48,579 nucleotides of DNA from Candidatus Cloacimonadota bacterium (GTDB lineage: Bacteria; Cloacimonadota; Cloacimonadia; Cloacimonadales; TCS61): contig JAOZPK010000001.1 in assembly GCA_029932755.1 (NCBI GenBank), positions 1 through 48,579 on the forward strand, given 5' to 3'. The position numbers and the translations under genes were made by a program. Below, one piece after another: positions 36,037 to 44,756 of the stretch. Position 1 is the stretch's first letter, and every line of letters starts with the position of its first letter. Under the pieces are notes generated by a model. It was not told the origin of the DNA, did no database searches, and was given only the letters and a program-made list of their open reading frames with translations.

Positions 36037-37236
36037 ATGATCATTTCAAAAAAAATCTTATTTTTAATTTTTATTCTTTTATCTTCAGCTTTGTATTCTA
36101 CAATTATTAATGTACCGGCAGACCAACCAACAATACAAGTAGGAATCGATGCTTCTACAATCGCAGACACAGTTCTTGTACAACCCGGAACATATGTTGA
36201 AAATATTAATTTCAACGGAAAGCTTATTACACTTGGATCATTATTCTTAACAACACAAGACTCAAGTTATATTTTATCAACTATTATTGATGGAAATGCT
36301 GCTAGTCGTGTTGTAAGTTTTGTTAGTAGTGAAAATTCATCCGCTATATTAAATGGATTCACTATTACAAATGGCTCAAGTTCTTATGGTGCTGGTATTT
36401 ATTGTAATGGTGCAAGTCCAACTCTGGTAAATCTTCTAATAAAAGAAAATACAGCTATAAGTGGTGGAGGTGGAGTATCATGTTACCACGCTAGTCCAAC
36501 CTTTAAGAATGTAACTTTAATCAACAATCATACCGATAGTCAAGGTGGAGGAATTTATTGTTATGGTAATAGTAATTCGTTAATAGAGAATGTAACTATT
36601 TCTAATAATACTGCTACTGTAGGCGGTGGAATCTGGTCTCATACTTCAGAACCGAATATTATAAATTCTATTCTTTGGAATAATTCACCTTGGGAAATAG
36701 ATTTAAACTCGAGTGCAATTACAGTATCGTATTCAGATATTGAAGGTGGTGAAGCCGGAATTGCAATTAACAATAACTGCACAGTGAATTGGTTGGATGG
36801 CAATATAGATGAAGATCCTTTGTTTGTTGATGCCGGCAATGGAGATTACAATTTGACTGAAGGTTCTCCTTGTATAGATGCCGGAGATCCAAGCTCACCT
36901 TTAGATCCGGACGGTACAACTGCAGATATGGGAGCTTGGTTTTATGATCAAAGCAGTGCAATTGAGGAAAATGAAATTCAGAATGTAAACTATAATCTAT
37001 CAAATTACCCCAATCCATTTAACCCGCTTACAACAATAAAATTTGATATAAAAGAGAATGAGATCGGTACCTTAAAAATATTCAACATGAAGGGGCAATT
37101 ATTAGAATCGTATCAGTTTGATGCAGGAGAACATAATTTCCAATGGGATGCATCCAATATGAGTTCGGGCGTTTATTTATATCAACTGCAAACAGAAAAT
37201 ACTACTGTAAATAAGAAGATGCTGCTACTAAAATAG
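36037..37236 (+). CDS. secreted right-handed beta-helix repeat protein with T9SS C-terminal sorting domain
   Basis: AGGAGG RBS and a signal peptide. Repeated GGGI(Y/W)C...N..I.NN turns. C-terminal NYPNPFNPLTTIKF...GVYLYQLQ...KKMLLLK tail. Confidence 0.85.
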   Translation: MIISKKILFLIFILLSSALYSTIINVPADQPTIQVGIDASTIADTVLVQPGTYVENINFNGKLITLGSLFLTTQDSSYILSTIIDGNAASRVVSFVSSENSSAILNGFTITNGSSSYGAGIYCNGASPTLVNLLIKENTAISGGGGVSCYHASPTFKNVTLINNHTDSQGGGIYCYGNSNSLIENVTISNNTATVGGGIWSHTSEPNIINSILWNNSPWEIDLNSSAITVSYSDIEGGEAGIAINNNCTVNWLDGNIDEDPLFVDAGNGDYNLTEGSPCIDAGDPSSPLDPDGTTADMGAWFYDQSSAIEENEIQNVNYNLSNYPNPFNPLTTIKFDIKENEIGTLKIFNMKGQLLESYQFDAGEHNFQWDASNMSSGVYLYQLQTENTTVNKKMLLLK

Positions 37237-40714: not shown

Positions 40715-43495
40715 TTGAAAAAGAATATCCTGATTATTTTTATTCTCTATACAACAGTATTATTTAGTGTTAGTATTTATGATATTCAATATACTACAAA
40801 CCCGGGAGGGAATGGAACATATCCATCACCATACGCAGGACAAATTGTAACAACAGGCGGTATTGTGGGTGGAACCGATTTTAATAACGGAAGATTTTTT
40901 ATCACATCTTCGTGGGGAGGTGATTGGCAAGGAATTTACGTTTATGATAATAACCAGAATGTAGCAGTTGGTGATAGCGTTATCATTGAAGCGGAAGTTT
41001 ATGAATATTGGGGATTCACTGAACTTAGCAATTTAATTTCCTGTGAAATAATCTCCTCAGGGAATTCTCTTCCGGCATATCTTGTTACTTCAATTTCCAA
41101 TGCAATAAACGAAGTTAGAGAAAGCACACGAGTAGGTATTAGCCCTTATGATTTATCGATTACACAAACTTACGACGAATGGGGGCAATGGAAAGTTGCT
41201 GATGGAAGCGGAGAATGTACCATTAGTACCGGATTTATGAACATGCAGGAAATGGGCATCCCGCTTGTAGTGGGCTATCCTTTGTATATCGGTGGATTTG
41301 TTACATATTTTTGGGAAGAATTTCAGCTCAATCCAATTAGTTTGTATTCCATTTCAACAGCCCCTGAGAATCATATCATTTCAATTCAAGAACAATTATT
41401 GTTCTCTCCAGAAGAATTTGAAATTCCGATATACCATACAGTTTTCAATAATGGGCAAGTTCAATCATATCAATTTGAGTTACAATATAATTCAGAAGTG
41501 GTCGAATATGTAGGTTATGAAACATTGGGAACGCTTTCGGTAAATGGAACAATTGAAATTGAACAGGTGGGAAATGGAACAATTTCTCTTTCATATAATG
41601 GAGATTTTTCTTTTGAAAATATGGAAATTCTTCTTAAATTGAATTTTTCCGGACTAGAAACCGGTAGTGCGGATTTGGAGTTTTCAGAATTTGTAATCAA
41701 TGATAATTCAGTGGAATATTTTTCTATTGAGGATATAATTTTGCAATTGGAAACTATCCCGATCGGTGATACTCTAACTGTTATTCAAAGACCAATTATG
41801 AATATTCCCCAGATAACTATCCCAAATGAAGAATTTAACATTGTATGTCTGGCGGACGAATCAACTACAGGTTGGACAGCAGAATTGATACATTACAATA
41901 AGCTTATCCCTCTGAATATTTCAAATACTTTTTACGACCCTGATCTGGAAAGATGGATATTAACAGTTACTGCTCCCATTCCCGACATTTATGAACTCTA
42001 CGATCTGATCATTAGTGCCAACGGAATTATTACAGATACAACCAGAAATGCTGTTCATCTTATACCGGAAAGAAAAACAAATTATTCCTTTATCCATATA
42101 ACAGACTCCCATCTTCCAACCCATATCTTTTATCCCGATCCCGCCTCTTTAACCGATTCAACAGAGGTGGAAGACCTGCGTCAAGTGATCAATGATATCA
42201 ATCTGATCAATCCGGAATTTGTTCTGTTTACAGGTGATATAGTAAATGAAGGTGAGATGGAAGAGTTTGAGAATCGACGGGTTTATACTAAAGCCCAAAA
42301 ACTGCTGGAGGAGTTGAAGGTTCCCTTCTATTTAACTTCGGGAAATCATGATCTCGGTGGTTGGATCAGTTCTCCCCCTTCGCAAGGGACAGCCAGACGT
42401 AACTGGTGGAACTTCTTCGGCTGGAACTGGCTGCAGGATCCACCTCCCGCCGATCCTTATTATACTCAGAATTATAGTTTCGATTACGGGCCAGTTCACT
42501 TTATCGGCATGGAAGCTTATCTGAATTACGACAGTTATATGTTCAATATTTATGGTGATGAGAGCTTTACCGATTTGCAGATGCAATGGCTTGAGGATGA
42601 TCTTAGCATGGCTTCAGCAAGCGAATCGCAAGTAATGTTCTACCATTACGATTTTTCTGAGCAGATAGATCTGGATGAGCTGGAGATAGAGATGGTTCTT
42701 TGGGGTCATATCCATTCCAACTCCGGGAATATAAACACTACTCCCTACAATCTTGCCACAGCTGCAACCTGTGATGGAAATCGTGCATACAGGATAATAA
42801 ATGTTATTAATGGCACCTTAGAACCCACTAATACGATCTATGCAGGTTGGGATGGAGAAGAACTCAGTGCAACTTTTTCACCCGATAACAATGGCTTAGT
42901 AGATAGCGTATTCTGCTATATTGAGAATTCTCAAAATCTAAGCTTTTCTGAGGCACAACTTAAATTTATTATGCCTGCCAATGCTGAAGAATATCTAGTT
43001 TATAATGGAACTCTAGCTCAAATTGATGATTCTGGTGAATTTGCGGTTTGTTATGTTTCAGTGGATATCCCGGCAAATGGAAATGTCGCTGTTTCGGTAG
43101 TAGCCGATTTTAATTCTTCAACAGAAAATATAATTGTTCCTCAAGATTTTCAGCTAACTAATTACCCCAATCCTTTCAATCCTTCTACAACAATTTCTTT
43201 TTCAGTAACCGCAAAGGACGTTAAGAACACAAAGCTGACAATTTATAATTTAAAAGGACAAAAAGTGAAAGATCTAAATGTCACCCTGAGCGGAGTCGAA
43301 GGGACAGTTAATAATTATCTTCAAGCTCCCAGTCCTTCGTCTACGCTCAGGATGACACAAGCTGGGAGTAATAAATATTCTGTTATTTGGAATGGAACAG
43401 ATGATAACGGAATACATGTTTCATCCGGAATCTATTTTATTAAATTGAAAAATGGAGATCAGGAAAGTTCAAAAAAGATAATGTTATTGAAGTAA
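40715..43495 (+). CDS. secreted calcineurin-like metallophosphoesterase with cohesin-like module and T9SS C-terminal sorting domain
   Basis: TTG start 5 nt after AAGGAG, and a signal peptide. Phosphoesterase motifs are HITDSH, GDIVNEG, GNHD and WGHIHSN. C-terminal NYPNPFNPSTTISF...GIYFIKLK...KKIMLLK tail. Confidence 0.85.
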   Translation: MKKNILIIFILYTTVLFSVSIYDIQYTTNPGGNGTYPSPYAGQIVTTGGIVGGTDFNNGRFFITSSWGGDWQGIYVYDNNQNVAVGDSVIIEAEVYEYWGFTELSNLISCEIISSGNSLPAYLVTSISNAINEVRESTRVGISPYDLSITQTYDEWGQWKVADGSGECTISTGFMNMQEMGIPLVVGYPLYIGGFVTYFWEEFQLNPISLYSISTAPENHIISIQEQLLFSPEEFEIPIYHTVFNNGQVQSYQFELQYNSEVVEYVGYETLGTLSVNGTIEIEQVGNGTISLSYNGDFSFENMEILLKLNFSGLETGSADLEFSEFVINDNSVEYFSIEDIILQLETIPIGDTLTVIQRPIMNIPQITIPNEEFNIVCLADESTTGWTAELIHYNKLIPLNISNTFYDPDLERWILTVTAPIPDIYELYDLIISANGIITDTTRNAVHLIPERKTNYSFIHITDSHLPTHIFYPDPASLTDSTEVEDLRQVINDINLINPEFVLFTGDIVNEGEMEEFENRRVYTKAQKLLEELKVPFYLTSGNHDLGGWISSPPSQGTARRNWWNFFGWNWLQDPPPADPYYTQNYSFDYGPVHFIGMEAYLNYDSYMFNIYGDESFTDLQMQWLEDDLSMASASESQVMFYHYDFSEQIDLDELEIEMVLWGHIHSNSGNINTTPYNLATAATCDGNRAYRIINVINGTLEPTNTIYAGWDGEELSATFSPDNNGLVDSVFCYIENSQNLSFSEAQLKFIMPANAEEYLVYNGTLAQIDDSGEFAVCYVSVDIPANGNVAVSVVADFNSSTENIIVPQDFQLTNYPNPFNPSTTISFSVTAKDVKNTKLTIYNLKGQKVKDLNVTLSGVEGTVNNYLQAPSPSSTLRMTQAGSNKYSVIWNGTDDNGIHVSSGIYFIKLKNGDQESSKKIMLLK
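43280..43357. repeat. 78-nt palindromic (MITE/RPE-like) element inserted in frame in the T9SS sorting domain
   Basis: The arms 43280-43303 (GTCACCCTGAGCGGAGTCGAAGGG) and 43333-43356 (TCCTTCGTCTACGCTCAGGATGAC) pair at 20 of 24 positions around a 29-nt loop. The element encodes 26 extra residues that are absent from the paralogous sorting domain at 36037-37236. Confidence 0.6.
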
Positions 43496-43514
43496 ATTTA
43501 GAATATTTTCTTGC

Positions 43515-43542
43515 TTGACACTCAAGAAGAAACATTTAAAGT
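43515..43542 (+). promoter_or_regulatory. candidate promoter of the AAA/DUF4143 ATPase gene
   Basis: TTGACA at 43515-43520 and TAAAGT at 43537-43542 (16-nt spacer). Confidence 0.3.
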
Positions 43543-43550
43543 TGGGAACG

Positions 43551-43614
43551 TGTTCCTGAAATTATATATAAATACAGGATTATGTTCCCGTAATTATATA
43601 TAGATACGGGATTA
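43551..43614 (+). repeat. two tandem 32-nt units, each an AT-rich-loop hairpin, directly upstream of the ATPase RBS
   Basis: Units 43551-43582 and 43583-43614 are identical at 28 of 32 positions. Two of the four differences are compensatory within the stem (CCTG...CAGG versus CCCG...CGGG). Confidence 0.75.
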
Positions 43615-43625
43615 GGGAGAGTGTT

Positions 43626-44756
43626 ATGATTAAACGAGAAATCTCAAAACAGATTGAAAAACGTCTTTTTAAAGGCAAGGCTATCATTCTGATCGGAGCC
43701 CGGCAAGTAGGAAAAACAACCTTGATCAATGAATTGCTTAAAAATATTCCTGAAAAGAAGCTTTTCATCAATGGTGATGAAGCAGATTCCTTTTTCTGGG
43801 CACAAAAGCCAACAACAATTAAGCTGAAGACTTTGATCGGAGATCATAAAATTGTTTTCATCGATGAAGCACAACATATTCCTAATATCGGCATCATCAT
43901 GAAACTTATAATAGATAACATTGCAGATGTGCAGGTGATTGCTACCGGTTCATCTGCTTTGGAAATTAAGAATTTGATGAATGAACCGCTAACTGGTCGA
44001 AAATATGAATTTCACCTTTTTCCTATTAGTTTTACTGAAATAGTGAATCATACAGACATCCTAGAAGAAACAAAAACATTACACCAACGTTTGATTTATG
44101 GTTCTTATCCTGAAATAATCACCCATCCCAAAGATAATAAAAAGTTATTAAATATGTTGGCTGGCAGCTACTTATACAAAGATATTCTAGCATTAGATGC
44201 TATTCGAAAACCCGAAATACTTAAAAATCTCGTTCGTGCTTTAGCCTATCAAATTGGAAATGAAGTTAATTATCAAGAACTCAGCCAACTGGTGAAATCC
44301 GATGCAAAAACCGTGCAAAATTACGTTGATCTCCTGGAAAAAACATATGTGATCTTCAGATTGCCAGCCTTTAGCAAAAATTTGCGAAATGAGATAAAGA
44401 GAGGACGTAAGATCTATTTTTATGATAATGGAATTCGTAATGCCTTGCTGGGAAATCTTACAGATATTGAGTTGCGTACTGATAAAGGTGCTTTATGGGA
44501 AAATTATCTAATTTCTGAACGTAAGAAATTGTTGAATTACCAGGATCGTTATGTTCAAAGTTATTTCTGGCGTACATTTCAGCAAAGTGAAATCGATTAT
44601 ATTGAAAAGGAAAATGAAGATATTTCAGCTTTTGAATTTAAATGGAATCCGCAGGCAAAATGGAAAATGTCAAAACCGTTTAAAGAAAGTTATCATCCTA
44701 AAGAGATGAAGATCATTCATCCCCATAATTATTATGAATTCTTGGGAGTTGAATAA
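43626..44756 (+). CDS. AAA-family ATPase with C-terminal DUF4143 domain
   Basis: Walker A GARQVGKTT and Walker B IVFIDEAQ. The C-terminal segment EIDYIEKE...AFEFKW is typical of the AAA_14/DUF4143 architecture. Confidence 0.85.
   Translation: MIKREISKQIEKRLFKGKAIILIGARQVGKTTLINELLKNIPEKKLFINGDEADSFFWAQKPTTIKLKTLIGDHKIVFIDEAQHIPNIGIIMKLIIDNIADVQVIATGSSALEIKNLMNEPLTGRKYEFHLFPISFTEIVNHTDILEETKTLHQRLIYGSYPEIITHPKDNKKLLNMLAGSYLYKDILALDAIRKPEILKNLVRALAYQIGNEVNYQELSQLVKSDAKTVQNYVDLLEKTYVIFRLPAFSKNLRNEIKRGRKIYFYDNGIRNALLGNLTDIELRTDKGALWENYLISERKKLLNYQDRYVQSYFWRTFQQSEIDYIEKENEDISAFEFKWNPQAKWKMSKPFKESYHPKEMKIIHPHNYYEFLGVE

Follow-up and report, generated by a model that had tools for sequence, protein, structure and literature searches.

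In the genome of a Candidatus Cloacimonadota bacterium (assembly GCA_029932755.1) we analysed a stretch of 48,579 nt (contig JAOZPK010000001.1, positions 1 to 48,579, hereafter the window), in which the gene of a secreted phosphoesterase carries a 78-nt palindromic block within the part that encodes its C-terminal type IX secretion system (T9SS) sorting domain. The block would be an inverted doublet of a short palindrome of the repetitive extragenic palindromic (REP) type, arranged like REP doublets forming hairpins (REPINs) and lodged in frame in the predicted β4-β5 hairpin loop of a type A C-terminal domain (CTD). We consider it likely that this element, REP/REPIN-like of the CGTC/TGTC-tagged type, is a selfish or neutral passenger that behaves like a Rickettsia palindromic element (RPE), sits in a permissive CTD loop and is turned over by recombination.

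The original prediction, made from the window alone, had described two inverted 24-nt arms complementary at 20 of 24 positions around a 29-nt spacer, making up 26 in-frame codons, and both the repeat search and the translation bear this out. The inverted-repeat search placed the arms at 43279-43302 and 43334-43357 (24 nt, 88% complementary, 31 nt apart); the alternative register, 43280-43303 and 43333-43356, gives the 20/24 complementary positions and the 29-nt spacer. The block at 43280-43357 (78 nt, 26 codons) is in frame within the open reading frame (ORF) 40715-43495 and encodes VTLSGVEGTVNNYLQAPSPSSTLRMT. The element is longer than first described: a 43-nt unit encloses the right arm, and the T at 43279 completes the TGTC tag on the left.

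Read directly, the element begins with a repeat core in sense orientation (43279-43303, forward strand, also found by the inverted-repeat search), which consists of the TGTC tag and ACCCTGAG-CGGAGT-CGAAGGG, is translated VTLSGVEG and has the C5...G version of a covarying stem pair described below. An AT-rich spacer between the units (43304-43325, forward strand) is followed by a full antisense repeat unit, U (43326-43368, reverse strand, 43 nt), translated PSPSSTLRMTQAGS. The outer 7-bp stem of U is formed by CTCCCAG (43326-43332) and CTGGGAG (43362-43368) and encloses the core TCCTTCGTCTACGCTCAGGATGAC at 43333-43356 (complement of GTCATCCTGAG...CGAAGGA) and then ACAAG at 43357-43361. Units with the ACAAGCT extension recur at many further genomic sites. 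Folded as single-stranded DNA, positions 43274-43375 reach -19.1 kcal/mol (z = -4.29, 0 of 200 shuffles equally stable), and as RNA -33.9 kcal/mol (z = -3.62 against shuffles). A search of 43000-43700 against Rfam at permissive thresholds returned only noise, namely microRNA and CRISPR-repeat models far below their gathering scores. A hammerhead-like reading of CUGAG...CGAAGG was ruled out by inspection, since G8 and A9 of CUGAUGA are absent and the GAAA context does not fit.

The host gene (40715-43495, forward strand) was assigned from its ORF translation, Pfam matches and orthologues across the order: its 926-aa product is a secreted calcineurin-like phosphoesterase (Metallophos, 60 bits) with a C-terminal T9SS sorting domain (Por_Secre_tail, 34.1 bits, above the cut-off of 27). 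The Por_Secre_tail match (residues 817-857, profile positions 2-40 of 75) ends at the insert, and on its 3′ side FlgD_ig and CHU_C matches restart at residues 880 and 885, at profile position 44, and extend to about residue 920. Thus, the CTD (43163-43492, forward strand) is divided exactly at the insert. The tail of the paralogous protein encoded at 36037-37236 is uninterrupted at the corresponding point; the breakpoints and the tail comparison agree with the earlier claim that the sorting domain is split where the paralogue runs on. Assignment to the type A T9SS CTDs (PF18962) is based on a profile score above the cut-off, on matches of the predicted β-sandwich fold and on T9SS machinery encoded in the same genome, which includes an SprA-like protein (502.9 bits) and a PorU-like protein that scores 370 bits, under its cut-off of 420. 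This genome (G000) is a metagenome-assembled genome (MAG) of 2.23 Mb with 34% GC in 215 contigs, 82% complete, and an iterated profile search found 118 T9SS-type C-terminal tags in it. For a 2.2-Mb, 82%-complete MAG, 118 tags represent an unusually large share of the proteome.

The structure of the domain was predicted with AlphaFold2 from a 24-sequence alignment. With the insert, the β-sandwich is kept in the model, with confident prediction of strands 45-49 and 80-87; residues 55-78 have a predicted local distance difference test score (pLDDT) below 50. The orthologue from genome G011, which is free of the insert, is modelled with the same strand order (mean pLDDT 88.7) and a 9-residue loop at the insert site. 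The best Foldseek matches are the CTDs of PorU (6za2) and PorZ (5m11), and the T9SS-bound substrate CTD 8glk_D was also matched. The insert therefore appears to be tolerated as a predicted disordered loop of the β4-β5 hairpin. These models do not demonstrate the suggested exaptation as a surface loop; in them the insert is predicted to be disordered and looks simply put up with. The other suggestion, that it compromises recognition by the T9SS, finds no support: the conserved motifs of the tag and its predicted fold are intact, and the orthologue in genome G006 keeps the insert in an open frame.

The sequence of the arms is not private to this gene. The pattern GTCAYCCTGAG-N(3-50)-CGAAGG occurs in 49 units in the MAG and once in a reversed control. 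A dispersed, RPE-like repeat had been anticipated, and the roughly 49 copies, some in frame in housekeeping genes such as that of valyl-tRNA synthetase (ValRS), confirm it; the window holds no further copy, as had been noted, with dozens elsewhere in the genome. The unit consists of the TGTC tag and the stem AYCCTGAG/CGAAGGRT (8 positions, with a tandem G.A/A.G mismatch). The loop is 5-6 nt long in the 23 copies of architecture A and 18-47 nt in the remaining 26, save one of 58 nt. In architecture B an inner hairpin takes the place of the loop, and its stem sequence varies among copies with complementarity kept; the inner hairpins of 15 such units average -6.9 kcal/mol versus -1.8 for shuffles. 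Architecture C (7 copies) contains a nested antisense core. When 63 units were compared, position 5 and the base after AGG, the second pair of the stem, were found to covary (T-A in 41, C-G in 16, other in 6). The first stem pair has its closing T in 35 of the 63, and a T precedes GTCA in 55, that is, in 37 of 39 from this genome and 18 of 24 from sampled Bacteroidota. Pair covariation and inner hairpins with differing stems mean that the stem structure is under selection. At the borders of the units no conserved target motif or duplication was found, upstream nothing beyond the T of the tag.

The nested units of 46-47 nt lie at C47:14786, C54:20697, C154:22482, C168:1658, C207:3544, C20:2753 and C21:2063. 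In them an antisense core occupies the loop of a sense core, and with the complementary segments in this order a single strand could form an H-type pseudoknot.

Direct reading of the core in six frames gives four that are open (VILSGVEG, CHPERSRR, SFDSAQDD and PSTPLRMT) and two that meet TGA. The genes in which copies are found make use of several of these frames. The copy in ValRS (C38:16253-16275) is read as VILSGDEG and sits in a gap of the alignment with Thermus thermophilus ValRS (1gax). A 402-aa ORF reads the core as CHPERSRR (C112:1530-1552), a 1002-aa ORF reads it as SFDSAQDD (C81:16787-16809), and a 433-aa ORF contains an in-frame doublet (C201:6677-6744); the first of these is HemN-like and the last PurD-like, judged from local sequence. 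Most units that occur singly in genes have the sense orientation (about 13 of 14, which are not independent of one another).

One place in the genome collects these units well beyond its share. A unit is held by 15 of the 118 CTDs, always between KGQKVKxL and YSVxWNG and 47-71 codons upstream of the stop. Fifteen of 49 units thus fall into about 0.2% of the genome (with the loop taken as about 36 nt), an over-representation of about 160-fold. The CTD-loop units are read as VILSGxEG or as SPSLCHPExxEGRG, and two doublets also as PSxxLRMT. With one loop used in three frames or orientations, it is therefore the DNA that is conserved and not the peptide. Short units tend to substitute for the CTD loop and not to extend it. 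In the tree, which includes 14 of the carriers, 12 belong to one 22-member CTD subfamily and two are found elsewhere; the subfamily contains every architecture, intermingled, and 10 of its members lack a unit. We considered a single origin, in which one old insertion had been inherited by the subfamily, and rejected it in part: the carriers do cluster in the tree, but the mixed architectures, orientations and orthologue states require later exchange. The same loop is occupied in G020, a genome of another genus (C14, C116, C87, C31 and C95, the last with a doublet spaced by 54 nt), and in the same-genus genomes G008 (C48) and G012 (C166).

A second doublet-bearing tag of the MAG, at C182:6928-7272, is paralogous to that of the window. 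Its open frame comprises just 114 aa, with a TAG inside the aligned stretch, so that a pseudogene or a gene fragment is possible.

Orthologues of the host gene differ in what the loop contains. The 78-nt doublet is present in the window genome (G000) and in G006; G013 and G007 have a full unit at the same site, equivalent to U but in sense orientation and in frame 1; G009 has one degenerate core. The 26 residues that had been proposed to be an insertion are absent from the orthologues in G011, G002, G010 and G024, which are of the same genus or family, and from the compared orthologues of other families. The span from IYN to WxG measures mostly 84-87 nt in unit-free orthologues (75 in G024, 96 in G022) and 156 nt in the window. 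The tree of the gene body groups G006 with G007, and G000 with the pair G011 and G002. The loop states conflict with this tree, and loop content is therefore not a matter of descent. Among the orthologues the tag has a mosaic middle, and its last 25 residues are orthologous. The state in G009 and the doublet state differ by one added block of spacer plus unit adjoining the resident core.

The comparison of G000 with G006 separates the arms from their surroundings. Nucleotide identity is 78.5% over the whole gene and 70.7% in the 5′ part of the tag, while the left arm is identical at 24/24 positions, the right arm at 24/24 and the 29-nt spacer (43304-43332) at 22/29 (76%). By our own arithmetic, 48 of 48 identical positions at the overall identity of the gene have a probability of about 1e-5. 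Conservation of the arms extends to all third-codon positions, in contrast to the diverging coding flanks.

We then looked at the distribution of the core (with a 6-nt loop) across genomes, with at most one mismatch allowed in Cloacimonadota, exact matches required in Bacteroidota/Ignavibacteria, and a reversed-pattern control run alongside, which gave 0 in every genome. In a first sample, the core was present in 19 of 41 relatives. It occurs in 13 of 13 same-genus genomes and 5 of 11 from other genera of the family, and in none of 16 genomes from other families. A wider sample gave 51 of 201 Cloacimonadota genomes. Among them, G181, from a family other than that of G000, has 96 core matches, many of them in inverted pairs 55-70 nt apart, and the core is absent from most sampled genomes of the families neighbouring it. 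High copy numbers in so patchy a pattern suggest that the repeat has spread in bursts or horizontally. Inverted pairs, 49-71 nt from start to start, occur in other genomes as well.

Outside the phylum, the core was matched in 46 of 301 sampled Bacteroidota/Ignavibacteria genomes. The original prediction had likened the termini to a repeat class that appears translated in hypothetical proteins of the Fibrobacteres-Chlorobi-Bacteroidetes (FCB) group, and this proved correct: the core in these 46 genomes is identical, with the peptides HPERSRR, FDSAQ(D/G/P)D and PSTPLR(M/V)T. Twenty Bacteroidota sites that we inspected are mostly intergenic and yield the familiar spurious peptides. Single loci among them comprise one doublet, one tandem array of at least 4 units with a 46-nt period (genome G465, locus L128, C39:34100-35100) and one unit in a T9SS tag, where it occupies the final loop, 17 codons upstream of the stop (G465, locus L127, C32:49300-50200). 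Of about 2.9 million viral contigs scanned, only 10 have an exact copy, so that phages are no obvious vehicle.

Among known repeats the closest description is that of the CGTC/TGTC-tagged REPs. As defined by Di Nocera, De Gregorio & Rocco (2013, PMC3733652), who published four families, these are short imperfect palindromes with an unpaired terminal tag of the CGTC type (often TGTC or CCTC), a stem of 8-9 bp that opens with an A-T pair and has complementary A/T at its first and second positions, a 4-5-nt loop and a short CCA-like tail. They are dispersed, often as inverted dimers, in Bacteroidetes, Chlorobi and other phyla. Some units and dimers lie within genes, where they encode 20-30 residues; the class includes the Rickettsia elements RPE-4 and RPE-6; and no dedicated transposase is known for it. 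The paper does not mention Cloacimonadota or T9SS tags, and its supplementary files contain none of the searched motifs or peptides. The window repeat resembles these REPs, by description, in its unpaired TGTC tag, dispersal and inverted dimers. Its 8-position stem may correspond to theirs, given an opening A-T pair whose T is not always present and a second pair that is T-A or C-G. It differs from the published description in lacking a CCA tail after AGGR, in the tandem G.A mismatch of its stem and in its loops, which are not of 4-5 nt but of 5-6 nt, or of 18-30 nt where an inner hairpin or a nested core expands them.

REPINs are two REPs inverted around a spacer, and the classical ones are extragenic, consist of GTAG-type REPs and flank a single-copy gene for a REP-associated tyrosine transposase (RAYT) (Bertels & Rainey 2011, PMC3116915; PMC3337134). 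The window block has the inverted pair and the spacer, with arms better conserved than the spacer; unlike classical REPINs, it is coding, and the RAYT-like genes of its genome are not flanked by units. RPEs are in-frame palindromic repeats in protein-coding genes, housekeeping genes included, and are tolerated as extra surface segments (cited in PMC3733652). The window family likewise lies in frame and leaves its genes undisrupted (the CTD genes, ValRS, the PurD-like and HemN-like ORFs), so that it works like an RPE. It differs in lineage and sequence family, in its strong preference for one loop of one domain family, and in having several architectures and both orientations. Of the label 'RPE/MITE-like' given to it at the outset, the first half stands and the second does not. 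Like miniature inverted-repeat transposable elements (MITEs), the repeat is small, non-autonomous, hairpin-forming and multi-copy, but we rejected this identity since it has no terminal inverted repeats matching an insertion sequence (IS) element and no target-site duplication. Our literature searches retrieved no paper describing repeats in T9SS tags, and the arm strings matched unrelated primers alone.

The genome was also searched for enzymes that might handle such hairpins. Matches to Y1_Tnp fall on contigs C50, C46, C176 and C196 and represent one IS200-type gene and three RAYT-like genes. The RAYT-like ORFs (190-203 aa; C46:21698-21889, C176:736-1278, C196:9981-10550) have NHFH(F/L) and NPVK motifs. 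Two of the three are 48% identical to each other, their Pfam Y1_Tnp scores are weak (21-28 bits), and the fragment on C176 scores 27.9 bits against a curated RayT model with a cut-off of 80.

According to the reading that we favour, the element would be a selfish or neutral passenger. It would persist because the loop is presumably exposed to solvent and the exported protein loses its CTD, as characterised T9SS systems cleave off the tag once export is complete. Recombination or gene conversion would be the chief means of spread and swapping, acting between copies of the repeat and between the paralogous CTDs, which number more than 100; new insertion beside resident units may also happen. Several observations weigh against this reading. 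A clean empty site that differs by the element alone was not found among the compared orthologues, in which the whole loop differs, and no target-site duplication was seen flanking the block in the window or in the orthologues. Short units appear to replace the loop, as would be more readily expected of cassette exchange, or of old insertions since reshaped, than of simple transposition. Part of the loop enrichment may come from inheritance by duplication and not from repeated targeting, given the 12 of 14 carriers in one subfamily. No core lies within 1.2 kb of the RAYT-like or IS200-like genes on C50, C46, C176 and C196, and the association of RAYT-like gene and repeat in the 41 relatives is loose (both in 14, repeat alone in 5, gene alone in 10, neither in 12). 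Finally, the 48/48 conservation of the arms and the sense bias of single genic units could be pointers to function; they keep a functional reading alive, to which we assign a small though not negligible probability.

The β4-β5 loop of one T9SS tag subfamily may be an actively used safe harbour and exchange point for a REP family that spans phyla, where an enzyme acting on single-stranded DNA recognises resident hairpins and adds, flips or swaps units in frame, or the hairpins may be an RNA signal of the host; either would explain the arm conservation, the roughly 160-fold enrichment and the sense bias, and we regard the pair as unlikely, with some weight left to it. Taken singly, the signal would be a host-beneficial cis-acting element towards the 3′ end of mRNAs that encode secreted proteins (a stabiliser, a processing site, or a translational pause that aids folding or targeting of the cargo before the tag emerges), with the peptide incidental. 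Arms identical at 48/48 positions between orthologues that are 78.5% identical, beside a drifting spacer, would be expected of it, as would covarying stems, the RNA fold (z = -3.62), the fixed distance of 47-71 codons from unit to stop in many CTD genes and the mainly sense orientation of single genic units. Yet only 15 of 118 CTDs have a unit and close orthologues of the host gene do without one; most Bacteroidota copies and about half of those in this genome are intergenic or in unrelated genes; both orientations occur at one site among orthologues; no Rfam family matches, and the distribution across genomes is patchy. Gene conversion among copies can account for the arm conservation too, and we hold a cis-acting signal to be distinctly unlikely.

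Were the CTD loop an actively targeted attachment site, a strand-specific enzyme such as a RAYT-like Y1 protein would recognise the resident hairpin and insert or exchange units there. This would accommodate the strong over-representation in the loop, the occurrence of A, B, nested, U and doublet forms at one site, the doublet as the G009 state plus one spacer-plus-unit block beside the resident core, the three RAYT-like ORFs on C46, C176 and C196, and an inner-hairpin subtype common to CTD loops and intergenic sites. We find it improbable: upstream of the units there is no conserved target motif beyond the T of the tag, the RAYT-like genes have no flanking core and correlate weakly with the repeat, CGTC-type REPs are reported without a dedicated transposase (PMC3733652), and the mosaic CTD middles of the orthologues point to ordinary recombination. 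That the 26 residues are an ordinary lineage-specific loop under peptide-level selection, with incidental palindromy, is hardly credible. The insert is in frame in two species, as this would require, but paralogues and orthologues read one DNA sequence, in this same loop, in three different frames or orientations, dozens of copies are non-coding, the loop is predicted to be disordered, and the third-codon positions of the arms are all conserved beside divergent coding flanks. Peptide-level selection is thus already contradicted by the data on frames, copy number and arm conservation.

Downstream of the host gene, between its stop codon and the next ORF (43626), lie two contiguous hairpin units of about 32 nt each (43545-43614). 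The inverted-repeat search picked them up; they gave weak microRNA-model noise in Rfam, and their sequence is unrelated to the TGTC repeat.

In-frame palindromic repeats were already known from Rickettsia and from scattered REP insertions. What is new in the literature searched is that one loop of a secretion tag collects about one third of a genome's copies, in several architectures and both orientations, and varies among same-genus orthologues. The collection amounts to a natural map of sites in the T9SS tag that tolerate 8-30 extra residues, and is a tractable case in which to ask how repeats of the REP type move and what keeps their stems constant. It also carries a warning for annotation: in FCB-group and Cloacimonadota MAGs, many CTD sequences consist in part of repeat DNA and not of protein signal.

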